Assembly (NCBI GenBank): GCA_045532215.1
Contig: JAZSFM010000033.1
Coordinates: 2,128 to 66,127 of the forward strand
Reading direction: 5' to 3'
DNA from: Eubacteriales bacterium
GTDB taxonomy: Bacteria; Bacillota; Clostridia; Oscillospirales; CAG-272
Length of the DNA stretch: 64,000 nt
Positions within the stretch are counted from its first letter, which is position 1. Every line of letters starts with the position of its first letter. The position numbers were made by a program, and so were the translations under genes. This document shows positions 42,663 to 58,723 of the stretch, one piece after another. The notes beneath the pieces were generated by a model, which was not told the origin of the DNA, searched no databases, and saw only the letters and a program-made list of their open reading frames with translations.

Positions 42663-42695
42663 GTTAATTCCCTCCAAAAAATTTAAGCTGTTAGA

Positions 42696-42860
42696 TTACT
42701 TCTCCTTCACAAACAGAGATACAACTCCGCAAGCAACGCCGCCAAATGCAAATATGATGGAGAGAAGCTCCGGTAATTTGCTGCTGTTCCCCATCCCGAA
42801 TGTATTTAACCAAATGGCAAAAAGCAAAAGGATGCAACCAAAAATCGGCAGTTTTTTCAT
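42696..42860 (-). CDS. Small membrane protein (54 aa), below the ORF-track size cutoff
   Basis: Hand translation MKKLPIFGCILLLFAIWLNTFGMGNSSKLPELLSIIFAFGGVACGVVSLFVKEK. GGAGGTG SD upstream. Confidence 0.5.
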   Translation of the reverse strand: MKKLPIFGCILLLFAIWLNTFGMGNSSKLPELLSIIFAFGGVACGVVSLFVKEK

Positions 42861-43228
42861 ATAGATTCACCTCCGTTTTGTAAATTCAAGTTTATCTATC
42901 TGTTACATTATATCATAAAATTCCCGAAATGTAAATAGAACAATAAGAAAAAATGAAACATTTTGCCCACGCTACCCAATGCTACATTGCTTTGTATGCA
43001 GAAGAAGTCAGGATTACAAAAACGGTATTGTCTGCTTTGTTTTTAGAATGCTTTCAAACTTTATAAACGCCACCTGCTTTTTATCGTTCTAATGAAAGCT
43101 CACTTAAATTAAGATTGTATTTTCTATTAAAACTTTCTGTTGTTAGAAAAATGGGGCAAACAAATTGCAGGCAAAAGTTCAAAAGTTTATTTTATGCTCT
43201 AAAATTTGTTGAAAAAACGTAAAATTTC

Positions 43229-43257
43229 TTGAAAAAAAGTAAAATCTGTGCTATAAT
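43229..43257 (+). promoter_or_regulatory. Strong promoter of the AT-rich two-gene cassette
   Basis: TTGAAA (43229-43234), 17 nt, TGCTATAAT extended -10 (43252-43257). The -35 region is duplicated (TTGAAAAAACGTAAAAT / TTGAAAAAAAGTAAAAT at 43208 and 43229). Confidence 0.7.
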
Positions 43258-43290
43258 GGTCACATAATTACAAATTGGGGGAACTTAATA

Positions 43291-43590
43291 ATGATTATTA
43301 TACAAATGAAAAAAGATAACGATGTTTTGAATATCATAAAAAAGCAAAATTTTGAACAATTGAATATAGAATTCATGGAAAGTAATTCTTTAGGATTCGA
43401 TTCTATTATTCAGATTTTCATTCCAATTTCTTCTATTCTTGCTCCTGTTGTTTCATCTATAGTTAGTAAAGTTTTGGAAACAAAGAAAATCATTATTAAA
43501 TACAAGGATGTTGAAATATCTGCTGGTTCATACAAAGAGTTTGAAAAGGCGTTACAACTAATTGATAAACAAAAAAATCATGAAAATTGA
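43291..43590 (+). CDS. Hypothetical small protein with a central hydrophobic helix (99 aa)
   Basis: ORF track. IIQIFIPISSILAPVVSSIVSKVL. Very AT-rich codon usage. Confidence 0.55.
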   Translation: MIIIQMKKDNDVLNIIKKQNFEQLNIEFMESNSLGFDSIIQIFIPISSILAPVVSSIVSKVLETKKIIIKYKDVEISAGSYKEFEKALQLIDKQKNHEN

Positions 43591-44704
43591 AGAACTAATT
43601 AAATTAACAATATTGGAACACCCGTGTCCTAGAATACTTGAAAATGCAAACTTATCTATTAAATATGAAACTTTTGCCCAAAAACAGGGGGTTAGTTTTA
43701 TGGAAACGTATAGTACTTCTGTTTTCCCAAGGCTTGTTTCTAATATACAAAAACAGGAATACTGTTTAGTTTGGGATAATCATTTTTGGGATTTGTATCA
43801 ACACTTTCTGTTAGCCATAAAGGAAATAGAGTTGAACAGAATGAATGATATTACATCATATGATTTTTTCGCTTCAGTATATAATATTTTCTTGTGTACG
43901 AAATTTTATAGGCAACCCTTTCTCTCACTAGTCTTTGCGAAATATTATGCTGCTACAGGATTTTTTGTGCCACCATATTATATAGAAAATGCTATAACCC
44001 ACAATTTAGACTTGCATGATGCTACTCGATGCTTGCGGTATTGTAAAGATTTTGTGTTTTTTCATGAAATTCACCATGCTCTATATCAGCAACAAAAGGA
44101 AGAAAAAATATTAAATTTCGCATTTATTAGACAAGAGTGTGAAATTTTAAAAAAATCATCATTGCCGCAGGAAACACAAGACTTAATACAAAATTTTCTA
44201 AATATGTCCGACGAGGTCTTACTAGAAGAACTTTGTTGTGATGTGAATAGCATATGTTCTGTTTGCTATCTATTTTCAAATAATGGTTCATATTCTAAAG
44301 ACATCACCGAAGATATTATAAAATCTATTCGTCTTATAACACTTTTTATAAACAATCTAAAAAGAATGGAGATAGTGTATAACCAATATCCTAAAACAAA
44401 GGACTTTGATGCTCTCTCAGAAAGTAATACATTTAAAAACAGCATTATCGAAAAAGAAATAAGAAATTATGTGGTGTTTTTTATTGCGAGAAAATTGATG
44501 GGATTTTATACCGACTTCAATTCGGATTCTGATTTTTTCCTTAACGACAATATGTTTTATCAACATTATCGCCCATATTCGGACATACTCCACCCTGACC
44601 ATATAGAAAAAGTATATACTGAAGCAAAATTTTATTCAAAAAACTTTAGTCCATCCGAATGTTCTATCGCCAGAGATATAATTATAGGTTGGCATAAAAG
44701 ATAG
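43580..44704 (+). CDS. Hypothetical HExxH-motif protein, putative metallopeptidase-like (374 aa from the ATG; the ORF track offers a TTG at 43562)
   Basis: FFHEIHHALY motif with acidic EELCCD about 45 aa downstream. Its start overlaps the end of the upstream ORF. Confidence 0.6.
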   Translation: MKIEELIKLTILEHPCPRILENANLSIKYETFAQKQGVSFMETYSTSVFPRLVSNIQKQEYCLVWDNHFWDLYQHFLLAIKEIELNRMNDITSYDFFASVYNIFLCTKFYRQPFLSLVFAKYYAATGFFVPPYYIENAITHNLDLHDATRCLRYCKDFVFFHEIHHALYQQQKEEKILNFAFIRQECEILKKSSLPQETQDLIQNFLNMSDEVLLEELCCDVNSICSVCYLFSNNGSYSKDITEDIIKSIRLITLFINNLKRMEIVYNQYPKTKDFDALSESNTFKNSIIEKEIRNYVVFFIARKLMGFYTDFNSDSDFFLNDNMFYQHYRPYSDILHPDHIEKVYTEAKFYSKNFSPSECSIARDIIIGWHKR

Positions 44705-44737
44705 ATTTTTGACAAACTTATAGAAATGGATGAAAAT

Positions 44738-44770
44738 CCCCCGAAAACCCAGTGTTTTCGGGGGCGTTTT
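44738..44770. terminator. Bidirectional terminator between the cassette and rpsI
   Basis: CCCCCGAAAAC-CCAGT-GTTTTCGGGGG, followed by CGTTTT. Confidence 0.8.
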
Positions 44771-44780
44771 GAACAAATAA

Positions 44781-45182
44781 TTATCTCTTGGAAAATTGAG
44801 GTGCACGACGTGCAGCTTTGAGACCGTACTTCTTTCTTTCCTTCATACGAGGATCGCGAGTAAGGAAGCCTGCTGCCTTGAGTGCGGGTCTGTACTCTGC
44901 GTCTGCTGCAACGAGAGCACGAGCGAGGCCGTGGCGGATTGCGCCTGCTTGACCGGAGATACCGCCGCCGTTTACGGTTGCGATAATATCAAACTTACCT
45001 TCGGTGCCGGTTACGCCAAAGGGTTGGTTAACGATGAGCTTCAAGGTCTCGAGACCGAAGTAATCGTCGATGTCACGCTTGTTGATGGTGATAACGCCGG
45101 TGCCGGGAACGATGCGAACGCGAGCAACGGACTTCTTTCTTCTGCCGGTTCCGTAGAAATAGGGCTTAGCACTTGTATACAT
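44781..45182 (-). CDS. rpsI: 30S ribosomal protein S9
   Basis: [19 protein letters not shown]...[16 protein letters not shown]. Confidence 0.95.
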
Positions 45183-47385: not shown

Positions 47386-49539
47386 TTATTGGGCTACGTA
47401 GTTATAATGAACAGTAGCGTTTGTTAGCGCAGAGTTATCCTCGCCAATGGTTACGTTGCCCCATTGCTCGGCACTTCCCTTGTAATATACGTTTGCAAGT
47501 GCGTTGCAGGAAAGAAATGCACCGTCGCTGATTCTTGTTACACTTGTGGGAATGACGATCTCCGTCAGCTTTGTGCAGGAGTCGAAGGTATTGCCCAAAA
47601 TTTTGACAACTCCATTGGGAATGGCAATGCTTTGCAAGTTTGAGCAATACTCAAACGCACAAGAACCAATGCTCGTCACGCTTGCGGGAAGCGCGACACT
47701 TGCAAGATTATAACAATGGCCGAATGCTCTGCTTTCAATTTTGGTAACCGAGTCAGGAATTGTTACGCTGGTAAGCTTGGTGCAATCATGGAACGCATTC
47801 TCGCCGATGGTAGTTACTCTGTACCAAGTTCCCTCACTCTCAAAAACAGCAGGGATAACGAGATTTTCACCTTCGACACCGGTGTAGCCAACCAACTCGC
47901 GGTTTTCGGCGGTAACGGTAAAAGCGGTGGGGGTAACGGTTTGACTATAGGAATCACCGCAAGGGCAAGTATATGTCGTGTAGCCATCTTCGGTTGCGGT
48001 GGGGGGAGTAACTACAGAGGTGTAGCTGTGTTCCCCTATAGCCGGAACAATTTCTTGTGCTACAAGAATTTCACAGCAAACATCGCAATGACTACCTTCC
48101 GTCAGTCCTGTTTTCGTGCAAGTGGGTGCAACCGCTTCGTCGATTATTTCGGTGTGTCCGTTTGCTTTTACGATTGTTTGTGCAATGAGAACTTCCCCAC
48201 AAACGCCACAATGCTTGCCTTCTGTCAAACCGGTTTCCGTGCAAGTGGGTGTAACCATTTCGTCAATTACTTCGGTGTGTCCGTTTACTTTTACGATTGT
48301 TTGTGCAATGAGAACTTCATTGCAAATGCCGCAATGCTTCCCCTCGGTCAAACCTGTTTCGGTACAGGTAGCAGCTACCGCCGCATCAACAACCTCGGTG
48401 TGACCAAGAGCAATGATTGTAAGGGTTTCGGTATATCCGCACTCAGTACAGTATCTTTGCTTGATTCCGCTTGCTATACAAGTTGCCTCTTTGAGGGTGA
48501 ACCACTCACCGAACGTATGCTCAACCGTGGGCGGATCTTGCCATACGGTGCCTACGTTTACGGGATTTTCGGGATCATCGGAATAGGTAATCCACAAACA
48601 ACCATCAATAATTTCTACTTTGATAATGCCGTGACCTGCCTCGCCTTGAGGTCCTTGTTCACCCTGCGGTCCTTGAGGACCTACGGGCCCTTGTTCGCCT
48701 TGTTCACCTTGGGGACCTTGAGGACCTACGGGACCCTGTTCTCCTTGTTCCCCTTGTGGACCTTGAGGTCCTACGGGGCCTTGTTCGCCCTGTTCACCCT
48801 GCGGTCCTTGTGGACCTACAGGACCTTGTTCGCCCTGCTCACCTTGGGGACCTTGAGGACCTACAGGACCTTGTTCGCCTTGTTCACCCTGCGGCCCTTG
48901 AGGACCTACGGGTCCTTGTTCGCCTTGTTCACCCTGAGGGCCTTGCGGTCCTTGAGGGCCTACGGAACCTTGTTCTCCTTGTTCACCCTGCGGTCCTTGA
49001 GGACCTACGGGACCTTGTTCTCCTTGTTCACCCTGCGGTCCTTGAGGACCTACAGGACCTTGTTCGCCCTGTTCACCCTGCGGTCCTTGAGGACCTACGG
49101 GGCCTTGCTCGCCTTGTTCACCTTGGGGACCTTGAGGACCTACGGGACCCTGTTCTCCTTGTTCCCCTTGTGGACCTTGAGGACCTACGGGGCCTTGCTC
49201 ACCGATTGCGCCGGTTTCGCCCTTATCGCCTTTGTCTCCGGTCGCTTTTACGCCAAGAGATACCCAAGTATTTCCTCCGTCGTAAGAAGCTTCCCAAATA
49301 TTTTCGTCATTGATTCGCAGTTGCGGAGTGATGCCATCTTTGCCATCTTCTCCGTTTTGTCCATCTTCTCCATTTTCGCCCTTTTCGCCGGGGACACCTT
49401 GGAGACCTCGTTCTCCTTGAGGCCCCTGTTCACCTTGAAGTCCTTGTAGACCTATAGAACTGCTCTCGCAAGATGCAAATGCGCCTACACAGCACAAAAG
49501 CAAAGCAAGTGTTAATAGCAAAGGAAGAATTTTTCCCAT
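47386..49539 (-). CDS. Surface lipoprotein (717 aa): collagen-like G-x-y tracts, four to five Cys-rich modules, C-terminal BspA-type LRR
   Basis: Signal peptide and lipobox [26 protein letters not shown] about 12 times. LRR repeats IPxSVTxIxxxAFxxCxxL. Confidence 0.85.
48628..49239. repeat. Coding 45-bp tandem repeat array (collagen-like triple-helix tract)
   Basis: CCTTGAGGACCTACGGG(A/G)CCTTGTTC(G/T)CCTTGTTCACC-type units recur about a dozen times. Confidence 0.9.
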
Positions 49540-54753: not shown

Positions 54754-54829
54754 CTGGGTGTGGCGCAGCTGGTAGCGCGCTACCTTGGGGTGGTAGAGGC
54801 CGCAAGTTCAAGTCTTGTCACTCAGACCA
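54754..54829 (+). tRNA. tRNA-Pro (anticodon GGG), CCA encoded
   Basis: CTGGGTGTGGCGCAGCTGGTAGCGCGCTACCTTGGGGTGGTAGAGGCCGCAAGTTCAAGTCTTGTCACTCAGACCA. Anticodon loop TTGGGGT. Confidence 0.9.
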
Positions 54830-54830
54830 A

Positions 54831-54877
54831 ACACGACTCTGTTGAACCGTAGGGAACAACAGAGTCGTGTTTTTTTA
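54831..54877 (+). terminator. Rho-independent terminator after tRNA-Pro(GGG)
   Basis: 14-bp stem ACACGACTCTGTTG...CAACAGAGTCGTGT plus TTTTTTT. Confidence 0.85.
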
Positions 54878-55030
54878 TTATACTATAAGCAGAAAGATGA
54901 GCACATAGTAGTGTCCTAGGCATTTATCGTTATTTTATCATTTCAAAATTAGCGTGTGTTTCTCGTTTTGCAAAATGTCCGAGAAGTACTAAATTCTCCC
55001 AAAAGATACGTCAATATATGCCTATATTCC

Positions 55031-55243
55031 TCATTTTTCGCCAATGCTCATTTTTTTTATACTTCTTTTAATACTCCTTGTCAAGACTAACGGCGAAGCG
55101 CATGGCTGCGGATTTTCTTCGCTTATTTTGGGGATTTCACCTCGTATACAACCAGTGTTAGAATCATAATAAGTAACCGCTATTGTTTTTTCAAACCGAG
55201 TATTACACAATAATCGATTGTACATTTTTTCTAATGTTCTCAT
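55031..55243 (-). CDS. Hypothetical small protein (70 aa), coupled to the upstream 2TM protein gene
   Basis: ATG at 55243 with an AAGAGGT SD lying across the stop of the upstream gene. Confidence 0.5.
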   Translation of the reverse strand: MRTLEKMYNRLLCNTRFEKTIAVTYYDSNTGCIRGEIPKISEENPQPCASPLVLTRSIKRSIKKMSIGEK

Positions 55244-55254
55244 AATATACCTCT

Positions 55255-56226
55255 TTATTCTATTTCTTGAATCATATTAACAAGATGCTCTTCTAAAAAT
55301 GGATAAAGCAGTTGAGCGAAAATAGTAGCGAATGTGGTAAGTGCATCTACTAATTCTTGCTCATTATCTGTGAATGTTCTTAAGCTATCTACGCATAAGA
55401 ATGCAAGATAATGATCATTGCCTTTTGTATTGTCCTTACCAAATTCTTTTATTACATTAGAAACAAATTGCTTCTTCTGCTTTATGGGGATCACTATCGT
55501 CGATTTGTAATATCTAAGATATCGTGGATCTGGATTGCGATATTCCTTGCCGCAATTTTCGTAACTTTTTTTGAGCTCCTCTAGATTTCTTGACACCCAG
55601 GGAAAACCACAATTTTTTTGGCTTGTATCTAATATTTCTAGAAAACTCGTATTATTTGATACTTTTTGACAATTATCATCCTTATCTGACCGTTCAGTAT
55701 AGTTCTCACATGCTCTTGCGATCGTTTGTGTTGACCAAGTACTGGGATCATCATCTAAAATATCCAGTGCCTTTATTTCCTTTATACACACACCAAACGA
55801 ACATTTCTCATCCAAATATATTTGAAAAAGCAATTCAAAGCACTTTTTGATTTTTTCACAAACACTATTCAAATGAACTTTTAATGCTGAACGTGATATC
55901 TTATTCTCGCTTTTTATAAATGCGGAAACCAATCCAACACTGCTAGCATATTGTGAAAGTTGATCACATAGTTGCCTCATTCCTTTTGCTTGATGTTCTA
56001 TAACCGTCGCTTTCACTTGTTTATGTAAAAACCATTTTCGAACAGTATAGAAAATAAGAATCATTATACCAATAAAAGTGAAAATCCAACATGAAAATGC
56101 CAAATATTCATTTTTTAAAAAACCACTTACAACACTTACTATTGTTCCAACTATAGTAAAAATGAAAGATACTAATAGCGTGTAAGGATTATTTACGAAA
56201 TTGTTAATTCTGTCTTTGTTGTTCAT
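55255..56226 (-). CDS. Two-transmembrane protein with an about 230-aa cytoplasmic domain (possibly GAF-like), 323 aa
   Basis: Start at MNNKDR (AGAGGA SD). Transmembrane helices LLVSFIFTIVGTIVSVVSGF and FSCWIFTFIGIMILIFY. C-terminal YKSTIVIPI...YLAFLCVDS pattern. Confidence 0.6.
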   Translation of the reverse strand: MNNKDRINNFVNNPYTLLVSFIFTIVGTIVSVVSGFLKNEYLAFSCWIFTFIGIMILIFYTVRKWFLHKQVKATVIEHQAKGMRQLCDQLSQYASSVGLVSAFIKSENKISRSALKVHLNSVCEKIKKCFELLFQIYLDEKCSFGVCIKEIKALDILDDDPSTWSTQTIARACENYTERSDKDDNCQKVSNNTSFLEILDTSQKNCGFPWVSRNLEELKKSYENCGKEYRNPDPRYLRYYKSTIVIPIKQKKQFVSNVIKEFGKDNTKGNDHYLAFLCVDSLRTFTDNEQELVDALTTFATIFAQLLYPFLEEHLVNMIQEIE

Positions 56227-56384
56227 AATACATCCTCTGCATTCGAAAATTTGCGCTTTTGTGAATAAATAATTATTTTTTTGCAACAATTGTATTGATT
56301 TACTATTCCACCTTTTTGCGGAATTCTTCTGCGCACTTAAAATTTACACAACCAAATCAACCCTTAAATTATTAGCACATTTAT

Positions 56385-56413
56385 ATTATATCAGATATTT
56401 TTGATTATCTCAA
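56385..56413 (-). promoter_or_regulatory. Promoter of the 2TM-protein operon
   Basis: On the minus strand: TTGAGA (56413-56408), 17 nt, TATAAT (56390-56385). Confidence 0.6.
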
Positions 56414-56692
56414 TACTTGTTTTTCATTTTTTTGAGGATTTTATGATTGTTATGTAAAATTTATTGATTTTTAGTATTTTCACAAAATTGTTATTTCCTT
56501 TAAAATTGTGAAAAATTCAACCTCAGCCTATCCGTTTTCGTGATATTTGTCAACATATACAAATGATACTATATCTATATAACCATTTTTTGATGGAGCA
56601 TATGTTTGGGTTTCAAAGCACCATTTGCTAGTTTTTCATAGTAGCAGCATAAACCTTTTATAAAGATAATAAATCAATTTTTTTGTTTTTGG

Positions 56693-58723
56693 CTATTGGA
56701 GTGCCCTATTAATTTTTATCATAAGGTTTTCTGCTTGACCTATCTCGTGAGGTTGCAAATCATTCAAACTATGATCGCGAGACCAACGAATAAATGCCTT
56801 AGCTAACTTGTATTTGGAAAAATCAGTCTTAGCAACACTTTGTATAATGTCGACTATCGGGCGCGTTGGTTGTGATTGTGCAATTGCAATGGCATCCCAC
56901 CCACATTGCTCCTTTGCTATGGTTAGGAGTGTGTCGCGTAACAAATCCTCTATTTCTGAATTTGATACTGAACCTGTATACACATCCTTTGTTCTAAGAA
57001 TTTTTTTTGCCCCTACCGCGTTTACCAATGTATCTTGTTTGGCAGCTTTATCTCCTTCGGCATCAGAATCTAATAATGCTGCAATTTTCATATTTTGCGC
57101 ATGCAGTATCGTAGCAAAATAAACCACTTTACTTGCACAATTAGCTGGAATCAAAGCAATTTGGTCGTTAATACCGTTTTTTCCACCAGCTTTTAATAAG
57201 GCCGAGAGACTTTCCAAATACCACATATCCGTCAATCCTTCAAGTAGAAGATTCTTCTCATGGAAGAATAAACTTTGAGCTAAATCATATCCTAATGCTT
57301 CTTGAAGTGGCAGCATTGCACCGCTATCATTTGCGGTTAACGAAACGTTAACTTTTGTACCTATTGTTCTATCTGTCATTTCGATCACACGAACTTTGTC
57401 CAATTCATTTGCTCCAACAAGAAACGGCGAATGTGTAGTATAGATTGTCTGATTTTTTGTACTAAGTTTCGAAAGCGTTTCACGGAATTCTGCTTGCTTC
57501 AAAGCGTGCAGACTCTGACCCGGTTCATCTAAAAGAAGAATCGCATTTTTATGCTTATCTGATGCTTCCGCGAAGAACACCGCATAAAACGAAACCATCC
57601 ATTGAAAACCTTCGGAACGTTGGTCCAACTCAACTTCAACCCCCAAATCATCTTCAACAACAACTTTCAGATATTGTCCATCGGCTTTGATTCTTAATTT
57701 GTTAGCATCTCGACCATCTTGCTTAGGATTCCATATTTCGCAAATCGAGTTTGTAAGTCGAATAGTTGCGGCATTCAATTGATAGTCACGTTTATCCAAT
57801 TGCTTTCGGTACTCTTCGTACTGGTCTGGTCTGCTTATATCATATCTAGAAACATCTCCTGCGGCAGCTAATTCTTTTGCAGTAAATCCTAAAAACTTAA
57901 GCAAGCATGAATTTCCATAATCATACTGTTTATCATCTAAAATATTTCTTTCCAAGCGTTCTGCAAGTTTTTTTAAATGCAAAACCGGTCTAATTCTAAA
58001 ATAATTGCTAAAAAGTATAAACTTGGGCATTCGAGTTTTAAATATCTCAAGTATTCTCTTGCGTTCTGCTGGTTTTTCTAACGCTTCAAGCAATCGATCA
58101 TAACGATTTTCTTCCGTTGTATTACCATCTGCCAAGTATGACACATTGCCTTTAATCCATGTAAAAAGTTGTTTGGCTTTCTCAATAGATATTATGCTCT
58201 CCATTTGTAATCCTGATACAACTTCATCATATCCACCTTGAATTTTTGTTTGCTTCTCCTCAAGTTCTCCATTTGTTAAGCTAGTATTCTTATAATGCTG
58301 GCAGAGTTTCAAAAGATCTTTCTCGATTTCTGAAAAGGCCAATGGTGGAGAAACATTCTCAAGTTTGTACCATGCAGAGTTATCCAAATTGCGTCCAAAA
58401 ATATATATCGCATTATGGTAGGCTTCAGGCAATTCCACTTTGTCTTCATCCTCTAAGGAAAAATGCCCTTCTACCACGGTGAATTTGCTTGGGTCTATTC
58501 TCCCTTTCTTAATATCTTCATCGTATTTTGAACGAGGATAATCTCTAAGAGGATCAAATTTATCAACGCCCTCTGGTGGATTCATTTTTTGTAAAGCATG
58601 TAATACTGCAGTCTTACCGGCTTCATTAGGACCTACTAAAATAGTCTTGTCTTCTTCAATATCAAAATAACCAGTATCAATGATACTCCGGTATCCTTGC
58701 ACTCTTGCTTTTACTAAACGCAT
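56693..58723 (-). CDS. OLD-family nuclease: ABC/SMC-like ATPase plus C-terminal TOPRIM domain (676 aa)
   Basis: Walker A GPNEAGKT, signature-like RSEGFQW, Walker B ILLLDEPGQSLH, YTTHSP. TOPRIM residues LLLEGLTD and LLDSDAEGD. AAGGAG SD. Confidence 0.8.
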   Translation of the reverse strand: MRLVKARVQGYRSIIDTGYFDIEEDKTILVGPNEAGKTAVLHALQKMNPPEGVDKFDPLRDYPRSKYDEDIKKGRIDPSKFTVVEGHFSLEDEDKVELPEAYHNAIYIFGRNLDNSAWYKLENVSPPLAFSEIEKDLLKLCQHYKNTSLTNGELEEKQTKIQGGYDEVVSGLQMESIISIEKAKQLFTWIKGNVSYLADGNTTEENRYDRLLEALEKPAERKRILEIFKTRMPKFILFSNYFRIRPVLHLKKLAERLERNILDDKQYDYGNSCLLKFLGFTAKELAAAGDVSRYDISRPDQYEEYRKQLDKRDYQLNAATIRLTNSICEIWNPKQDGRDANKLRIKADGQYLKVVVEDDLGVEVELDQRSEGFQWMVSFYAVFFAEASDKHKNAILLLDEPGQSLHALKQAEFRETLSKLSTKNQTIYTTHSPFLVGANELDKVRVIEMTDRTIGTKVNVSLTANDSGAMLPLQEALGYDLAQSLFFHEKNLLLEGLTDMWYLESLSALLKAGGKNGINDQIALIPANCASKVVYFATILHAQNMKIAALLDSDAEGDKAAKQDTLVNAVGAKKILRTKDVYTGSVSNSEIEDLLRDTLLTIAKEQCGWDAIAIAQSQPTRPIVDIIQSVAKTDFSKYKLAKAFIRWSRDHSLNDLQPHEIGQAENLMIKINRALQ

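Follow-up and report, generated by a model that had tools for sequence, protein, structure and literature searches.

Lit, an HExxH zinc metalloprotease encoded on the defective prophage e14 of Escherichia coli, stays latent until phage infection and then cleaves EF-Tu upon exposure to the T4 Gol peptide, aborting the infection (PMC3014915). The EACC1–caspase system is a predicted conflict system in which a 5' gene encodes a protein of about 100 amino acids (aa) and a 3' gene encodes a peptidase; EACC1 carries one strongly conserved hydrophobic segment between short alpha+beta elements (Kaur, Burroughs, Iyer and Aravind, 2020; PMC7159879). CapH/CapP, a module attached to the cyclic-oligonucleotide-based antiphage signaling system (CBASS), consists of a small protein and an HExxH peptidase that acts on its partner (10.1101/2022.04.27.489752). 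Here we describe a two-gene cassette that bears comparison with these systems. It was analyzed within a 64,000-nucleotide (nt) stretch of DNA from a Eubacteriales bacterium of the CAG-272 lineage (contig JAZSFM010000033.1, positions 2,128 to 66,127; hereafter the window), where it lies beside the ribosomal protein gene rpsI. Open reading frame (ORF) A (43291–43590, plus strand) encodes a 99-aa small protein, and ORF B (43580–44704, plus strand) encodes a mostly alpha-helical protein of 374 aa counted from its ATG, a putative metallopeptidase effector with the motif combination HExxH…EExxxD.

An earlier note on the window, made from its letters alone (the original prediction), had proposed that the cassette is a horizontally acquired conflict module which matches no named system. 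This is the best-supported reading, because neither protein falls into a housekeeping family, the cassette is variably present in close relatives, the HExxH residues are invariant among homologs, and the pair is found elsewhere in defense islands and on mobile elements. With moderate confidence we favor a self-contained, mobile two-gene conflict module of an undescribed family, whose most likely role is abortive infection against phages or toxin–antitoxin-like addiction. A full-text literature search found no description of the ORF A/ORF B family.

Lit is the best functional analogy for ORF B. The likeness lies in the HExxH motif and the mobile-element location. Lit is a single gene product activated by a phage peptide in E. 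coli, whereas ORF B has an obligatory co-encoded small partner and the pair occurs in gut Clostridia. ORF B did not match the Lit family, Peptidase_U49, in Pfam-A at E up to 10, and Peptidase_U49 was not among the 25 families listed as most often matched by 66 relatives of ORF B (E up to 1). Type II toxin–antitoxin systems are a second point of comparison. They share with the pair a small upstream gene that overlaps the larger one, a patchy and horizontal distribution, residence on mobile elements and in defense islands, and strong and constitutive transcription; one disrupted copy of the large gene of the pair was seen as well. At 374–440 aa, however, the putative toxin is larger than usual and fits no known toxin family, and the small protein lacks a DNA-binding domain through which it could autoregulate. 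As a computational candidate, the pair would act most like Lit, toxin–antitoxin, EACC1–caspase and CapH/CapP systems, but it fails the family-match tests for them.

ORF B is a putative zincin-like metallopeptidase

Nine relatives of ORF B were found among 5.8 billion clustered sequences, and an exhaustive profile search of 1.84 billion representatives detected 87 at E <1e-3. Sixty-six of the latter, with identity down to ~16%, made up the family alignment. The database version of ORF B (P0001, NCBI source) is 380 aa long and starts at TTG 43562; since all homologs begin at the ATG (43580), the 374-aa reading is the right one.

The HExxH motif singled out in the original prediction was borne out by the alignment. 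HEIHH (codons 44063–44077, plus strand; residues 162–166) sits inside FFHEIHHALY on a predicted helix (residues 149–171), and the only invariant columns in the 66 homologs are H162, E163 and H166. Conservation of at least 90% was seen for W65, D66, W70, E216, E217, D221 and R295. An EELCCD stretch had been noticed downstream as well. It is present at residues 216–221 (codons 44225–44242, plus strand) on predicted helix 212–232, but the spacing of about 45 residues given for it was too short, as E217 lies 51 residues past H166; across the family this distance is 49–77 residues with a median of 60. Of the two cysteines in EELCCD, the first is free to vary and the second is retained in ~90% of a subset of 25 sequences, so that the true second motif is EExxxD. 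HExxH together with a downstream Glu in ExxxD is the gluzincin arrangement, known from thermolysin- and neprilysin-type enzymes. E217 is a candidate third metal ligand in such a gluzincin-type ExxxD arrangement. The best 19-residue hydropathy of ORF B is 1.34, and the protein has no membrane segment. We infer from these motifs that ORF B is a cytoplasmic, zincin-like, metal-dependent peptidase, capable of metal binding and proteolysis, and that it is the effector of the pair.

Some distant members of the family, among them P0074, P0081, P0092, P0024 and P0035, are long forms of 630–730 aa. P0074, P0081 and P0092 have C-terminal TPR repeats (E down to 1e-17), while P0024 and P0035 have another C-terminal domain in common, which has no Pfam match.

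As the original prediction had stated, neither protein is recognizable by family: no model in Pfam, NCBIfam, PHROG or PADLOC scored above threshold for ORF A or ORF B. NCBIfam and PHROG returned chance-level matches only (DfrF and MovA; three PHROGs of unknown function), PADLOC-DB v2.0 gave 0 families at E up to 10 for either protein, and Pfam-A gave 0 families for ORF B at E up to 10. One relative, P0007, carries the precomputed label PF27432, for which neither the Pfam copy searched nor the literature search gave an entry. The AlphaFold2 model of ORF B (predicted local distance difference test score, pLDDT, 84.9; predicted template modeling score, pTM, 0.88) has three short N-terminal strands followed by ~17 helices, and both motifs fall on predicted helices after the three-stranded sheet. 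A Foldseek search of this model against PDB and BFVD gave no peptidase among the matches (best E 0.08, TM-score <0.2). PDB sequences searched with three ORF B profiles (A1, A3 and the core-only A8) contained no solved relative. The ORF B family may be structurally new, because fold recognition finds no counterpart.

ORF A and its pairing with ORF B

The two ORFs overlap, as had been noted, and the overlap (43580–43590) measures 11 nt. In 15 of 15 distinct loci the small gene is directly upstream of the large gene, and in all 10 loci that were measured the two genes either overlap, by up to 20 nt, or are separated by no more than 4 nt. Most junctions lack a separate Shine–Dalgarno sequence, which indicates translational coupling. 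Pairwise identities of the small and large proteins are strongly correlated (r = 0.90, Mantel p ~2e-4), and thus the partners have not been shuffled among lineages. Comparison of the window with its relative at L002 gave dN/dS values of 0.17 (small gene) and 0.13 (large gene), which places both genes under purifying selection. The partner of the most distant small protein, at L116, is a 420-aa protein with a local match around EExxCD (hhalign probability 91%, 27 columns); judged by this match it is a probable ORF B relative.

In one lineage, represented by two independent samples (L006 at 1094-2235, and L007), the large gene is broken into two frames (134 and 232 aa), each of which matches the family hidden Markov model. 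The small gene there is undamaged and has a RelB–YoeB pair beside it. Now and then a toxic component is expected to be inactivated in this way, and the split gene gives an indirect hint of one.

The ORF A family comprises 84 clusters, all of ~95–110 aa and all unnamed. Its conserved hydrophobic segment (residues 39–59) is the best-conserved part of the protein; P45 and K60 never vary, and at least 90% of members keep Q41 and P52. The 19-residue Kyte–Doolittle mean is 1.65–2.44 in 51 of 51 small proteins (median 2.0, and 2.0 in ORF A itself) with an uncharged run of 17–24 residues, a hydropathy high enough for a membrane helix in every one of them. AlphaFold2, given 51 sequences, nevertheless returned a compact five-stranded alpha/beta domain (pLDDT 82.6, pTM 0.71) with this segment split between a core strand (39–44) and a following helix (52–64). 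Foldseek with the ORF A model gave only non-significant ferredoxin-like matches (PII, ACT and S6; TM-score ~0.45, E >0.04). The single central hydrophobic helix proposed in the original prediction is therefore correct as to a conserved hydrophobic segment and was replaced in the model by a strand plus a helix within an alpha/beta domain. Going by the model, ORF A is probably no simple single-helix peptide but a folded alpha/beta partner.

These properties bear directly on one alternative to a conflict module with a soluble partner, namely an EACC1-like membrane sensor plus peptidase. ORF A would then span the membrane by a transmembrane helix, sense disturbance of the membrane, for instance by phage entry or lysis from within, and activate the peptidase. 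The gene order of ORF A and ORF B and the layout of the small protein match those of the two-gene system of Kaur et al. (2020), a strikingly parallel arrangement (PMC7159879), and it is the potential membrane helix that is most conserved in the small protein. The predicted structure argues for a globular rather than membrane-spanning ORF A, however: the invariant P45 stands at the end of the strand and P52 at the start of the helix, which fits a soluble fold better. The 3' peptidase differs too. In the EACC1 system it is a caspase fused to variable effectors, whereas ORF B, an HExxH protein, keeps the same architecture throughout its family apart from rare TPR fusions at the C-terminus, has no membrane segment, and belongs to a family whose Pfam matches include no caspase domain. 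ORF A had no Pfam match above threshold (the presence of an EACC1 model in the Pfam copy was not confirmed). EACC1 is found in Actinobacteria and multicellular bacteria, while the pair described here is found in gut Clostridia. We consider an EACC1-like membrane sensor unlikely, although among the alternatives it survives best; the conflict module with a folded partner remains our preferred reading.

Relatives of the pair in defense islands and mobile elements

A narrower alignment (A4) was used to scan GTDB representative genomes, IMG/VR and JGI metagenomes. No family relative was found in the GTDB species representatives (185,579 genomes) or in IMG/VR, and the JGI metagenomes contained only four loci of the family. 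Tblastn with two different family members against 72,556 plasmid and 50,697 phage records gave no match.

The pair resides in defense islands and mobile elements. Its AT content exceeds that of the surroundings in all 11 loci compared, and recognized defense or toxin–antitoxin genes lie within a few genes of it in 7 of the 11 loci with usable flanks. PADLOC matches among the neighbors are AriA, Tmn, ThsB, AbiH and PDC-S72. At L002, where the large protein is 70% identical to ORF B, the pair is the last cargo of an element with an amidoligase, a GATase, a resolvase, a D5_N primase and a tyrosine integrase, and it adjoins rpsI just as in the window. L108 has the same amidoligase–GATase–resolvase backbone and carries the pair between AbiH and PIN–RelB. 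A type I restriction–modification (R-M) system is found upstream of the pair in L103–L107, with PDC-S72 fragments downstream, and in L122 a type ISP R-M system lies upstream and GajA/GajB-like genes lie downstream. An AriA-like (PARIS-like) ATPase is present at L004 (E 8e-50), Tmn at L110 (E 4e-66) on an element with ParA/ParB/DUF6017, ThsB-TIR (E 1e-29), NACHT and PemK at L116, and RelB–YoeB at L006. L001 has a relaxase and MobC, and L008 has a Toprim/DUF3991 gene.

Comparison of the unrelated contigs of L002 (1-3690) and L108 (2018-6333) revealed Amidoligase_2, GATase_6/7, a resolvase and an unannotated protein of ~380–393 aa in common. The common backbone suggests a family of integrative elements by which the pair and other defense cargo are moved around.

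The cassette in the rpsI hotspot

The sharp drop in G+C content that the original prediction placed at about 42.9 to 44.7 kb was confirmed: 300-nt windows give 0.24–0.32 across ~42.9–44.75 kb, compared with ~0.45 for the whole window and 0.52–0.54 in the interior of rpsI. The spot counts of 18–20% G+C reported earlier are valid as single-line minima and not as an average, as ORF A and ORF B together (43291–44704) have a mean of 29.4%. The G+C content at third codon positions is 0.21 in ORF A and 0.26 in ORF B, against 0.51–0.67 in rpsI, rplM, nrdR, YjbR, DUF3795 and a neighboring 54-aa ORF.

Ten contigs encode an identical RpsI protein, and all ten show the order nrdR–rplM–rpsI, a variable stretch, and DUF3795–YjbR. 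None of the ten carries the cassette; each has different cargo in the same interval, which is the kind of presence/absence polymorphism that the original prediction had proposed to look for. In blastn comparisons with these sibling loci (L012–L021) homology stops at ~42683–42687, where the DUF3795 gene ends, and at 44779–44781, at the rpsI stop codon. The strain-variable interval therefore spans 42688–44778, between the DUF3795/YjbR block and the stop codon of rpsI (44781–45182, minus strand; the conserved flank and right border), and it holds the cassette and a small unrelated cargo gene. Sibling cargo includes a 412-aa Mrr-type enzyme (called a type IV restriction enzyme or PDC-S02 by PADLOC), a nucleotidyltransferase (PDC-S09), and integrase, GNAT, NUDIX, glyoxalase, kinase or flavodoxin genes. 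Two hotspot proteins of unknown function and similar size (364 aa in L015 and 367 aa in L019) were checked as possible ORF B relatives and are unrelated to it.

The cassette has its own strong promoter, as predicted. The promoter scan found a sigma-70-type promoter at 43229–43257 (plus strand; TTGAAA, 17 nt, and a TG-extended TATAAT) which matches at 11 of 12 positions, and the TGCTATAAT promoter box is kept in L002 and L003. A Shine–Dalgarno-like TGGGGGA (43276–43282, plus strand) is located 8 nt ahead of the ORF A start; its L002 equivalent is TGGAGGA. The duplicated promoter box described earlier does exist in the form of a 20-nt tandem duplication (43200–43239, plus strand) that includes the -35-like box TTGAAAAAA. 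The repeat search showed the two copies (43200–43219 and 43220–43239) to be 90% identical, and L002 and L003 have one copy each. Given the single copy in the closest relative, we take the duplication for a local, window-specific event and not a conserved operator; a role of the duplicated box as operator was ruled out on this ground.

A G+C-rich hairpin terminator (44738–44764; 11 bp, 7 G-C pairs) is common to the convergent ORF B and rpsI. It had been called bidirectional and lies between the two convergent genes; the terminator scan called it on the minus strand only, serving rpsI, and on the plus-strand side a short T-run, CGTTTTG, comes after it. L002 has the identical hairpin, which is missing downstream of rpsI in all siblings without the cassette; each of these has its own sequence and its own terminator right behind the rpsI stop. 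As the window and L002 share the hairpin, the terminator belongs to the cassette and travels with it. The cassette is thus a foreign, accessory and strain-variable unit with its own promoter and terminator. An Rfam search at E up to 1 turned up no structured RNA in the cassette or the spacer.

At the DNA level the window resembles L002 from the promoter (43221) as far as rplM (45805), a stretch that leaves out the integrase side. Farther upstream in the window, ~34 codons at 42959–43042 (plus strand) share 44% identity with part of the L002 tyrosine integrase (residues 366–399), and their placement and orientation match L002. This similarity is weak (23.9 bits), reached by 0 of 200 shuffles yet under BLAST significance. 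The stretch may be a remnant of the delivering element, of which only the terminal cargo is left. The host belongs to the uncultured gut Clostridia, and the window RpsI is 98% identical to RpsI of a metagenome-assembled genome from roe-deer cecum.

Alternative explanations and proposed mechanism

A second alternative is a regulatory switch of the ImmR/ImmA, DdrO/IrrE or CapH/CapP type. The peptidase would cleave the small regulator in response to a stress or infection signal and in this way turn on adjacent defense genes or the mobile element that hosts it. Such modules, with RosmerTA-type antitoxins grouped alongside them, pair a small protein with an HExxH…E metallopeptidase, occur on mobile elements and have defense neighbors. 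The gene logic of ORF A/ORF B is alike, and the diversity of the defense systems that the pair adjoins would suit a switch. Peptidase_M78 signals were detected in 4 of 66 ORF B family members, all sub-threshold, with a best E of 0.036; the match of P0025 (E 0.048) covers the HExxH turn only, and its 13.9 bits are well under the Pfam cut-off of 22. In M78/COG2856 modules, however, the partner is a helix-turn-helix (HTH) repressor, whereas no HTH Pfam domain was found in nine small partners at E up to 10, and ORF A has no other DNA-binding Pfam domain and is modeled as a ferredoxin-like alpha/beta fold. The metal site is spaced differently too, since the third ligand of CapP is ~29 residues past the second His (10.1101/2022.04.27.489752), compared with 49–77 in the ORF B family. 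Foldseek with the ORF B model retrieved no IrrE or CapP structure. No neighbor is conserved across the loci, which leaves no constant regulated target, and the pair in the window stands alone with its promoter and terminator between the convergent rpsI and the divergent 54-aa ORF. A regulatory switch is, in our view, rather unlikely.

The pair could also be a fitness or anti-defense factor of mobile elements, with a peptidase that degrades a component of host immunity or restriction or serves establishment or exclusion. Conjugative and integrative regions are known to carry anti-defense genes, and several loci (L001, L008, L110 and L002) are on conjugative or integrative backbones. Against this stands the failure to find the pair in any phage, plasmid or IMG/VR record, where anti-defense genes are expected to be common. 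Many copies are located between chromosomal defense genes with no transfer genes near, and the strict need for a small partner that co-evolves is seen more typically in toxic effectors that are self-restrained. An anti-defense function is therefore judged improbable.

Least probable of the four alternatives weighed here is a non-conflict accessory enzyme or binding protein, with a non-proteolytic HExxH metal site, that has ended up in variable regions by chance. The lack of a fold or family match to any peptidase is compatible with it, as is the content of the rpsI hotspot, which also holds ordinary accessory genes (GNAT, NUDIX, glyoxalase, flavodoxin). It leaves unaccounted for the frequent defense or toxin–antitoxin neighbors (7 of 11 loci) and the coupled two-gene architecture, patchy distribution and low G+C that are typical of conflict genes. 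The restriction of invariance to H, E and H, followed by the acidic EExxxD, is moreover the classic zincin pattern. Two further candidates were rejected: a precursor of a ribosomally synthesized and post-translationally modified peptide (RiPP) with its leader peptidase, because ORF A is a conserved folded domain without a hypervariable core and the loci have no conserved modification or export genes, and a polymorphic toxin with its immunity protein, because the small gene precedes the large one and no secretion or trafficking domain is present in ORF B.

The self-contained conflict module that we prefer has several points to its disadvantage. The association with defense genes is confounded by mobile elements, which also carry anti-defense and addiction genes, and the immediate neighbors of the pair in the window are non-defense genes. 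The peptidase assignment rests on motifs, because profiles reach no peptidase family, and the ORF B model, confident as it is, has no Foldseek match to a solved zincin or other structure. Support for the enzyme class comes from motifs and secondary-structure context and not from fold recognition, which we regard as the main weakness. Inhibitor, sensor and substrate are candidate roles for ORF A, each offered with less confidence than the overall reading. An anti-phage or toxic activity of the pair is suggested by genomic association together with the motifs.

We propose the following working model for the conflict module. The cassette's own strong promoter would drive both genes constitutively. 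In ORF B, H162 and H166 may bind the metal, E163 may act as the general base, and E217 in the EExxxD helix may supply the third ligand. ORF A, an obligate, translationally coupled and co-evolving partner, probably binds ORF B physically and would hold the peptidase latent; alternatively it could be a sensor or adaptor. A trigger, for example phage infection or loss of the element, would lift the control by ORF A, and the freed peptidase would then cut an essential host or phage protein and stop growth, as Lit does by acting on EF-Tu. Toxicity of ORF B, an inhibiting or sensing ORF A, a trigger and a target are all conjectural parts of this model.

A more far-reaching proposal can be put forward only tentatively: ORF B could found a new structural family of metallopeptidases and, with a ferredoxin-like or membrane-inserting partner, form a new class of abortive-infection system that is specific to gut Clostridia and moves between defense hotspots on integrative elements. 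If the conflict module is confirmed, it would be a new protease-based immune or addiction module from gut Clostridia, whose defense repertoire is largely unexplored because few members have been cultured. It would also add a new metallopeptidase family with a predicted fold that has no solved relative. The pair is compact (1.5 kb including the promoter), which makes synthesis and testing easy, and its invariant residues offer clean catalytic-dead controls. Many unnamed candidates from defense islands exist; this pair stands out by a confidently modeled and apparently new fold, a catalytic signature, a strict partner and a small locus. The rpsI hotspot itself is a convenient place to mine accessory and defense genes in this lineage.

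Other features of the window

Outside the pair, the variable interval contains a neighboring piece of hotspot cargo at 42696–42941 (minus strand), made up of the 54-aa hydrophobic ORF (42696–42860) and a promoter module (42856–42941). The promoter scan identified TTTACA-17-TATAAT on the minus strand of this module, which was aligned with 11 copies from sibling loci. A ~65-nt module precedes every rpsI–DUF3795 cargo gene and consists of TTTAC(T/A)-17-TATGGTATAAT, then an invariant GATAAACTTGAATTT box, and a gene-specific ribosome-binding site and start. It was seen downstream of rpsI in L012–L021, L023 and L070. Sibling loci often have two copies; the window has a single copy, driving the 54-aa hydrophobic ORF. 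The module could serve as a regulatory leader common to the cargo genes, or recombination could use it to exchange cargo cassettes.

A second AT-rich island (54754-58723, G+C 0.30–0.38) directly follows tRNA-Pro(ggg). It encodes a 675-aa AAA_15 + OLD-type TOPRIM protein (56693–58723, minus strand; Pfam 1e-20, PADLOC Old 4e-26, with AriA and GajA matches) and a 343-aa protein of unknown function (55255–56289, minus strand). The island is probably an OLD/Gabija/PARIS-like defense locus. At 47386-49539 (minus strand) there is a gene for a 717-aa protein with a signal-peptide-like N-terminus and long collagen-like GEQGPQGP(V) triplet repeats. It also has Cys-rich repeats and a leucine-rich-repeat-like C-terminus, and the local G+C content reaches 0.60.

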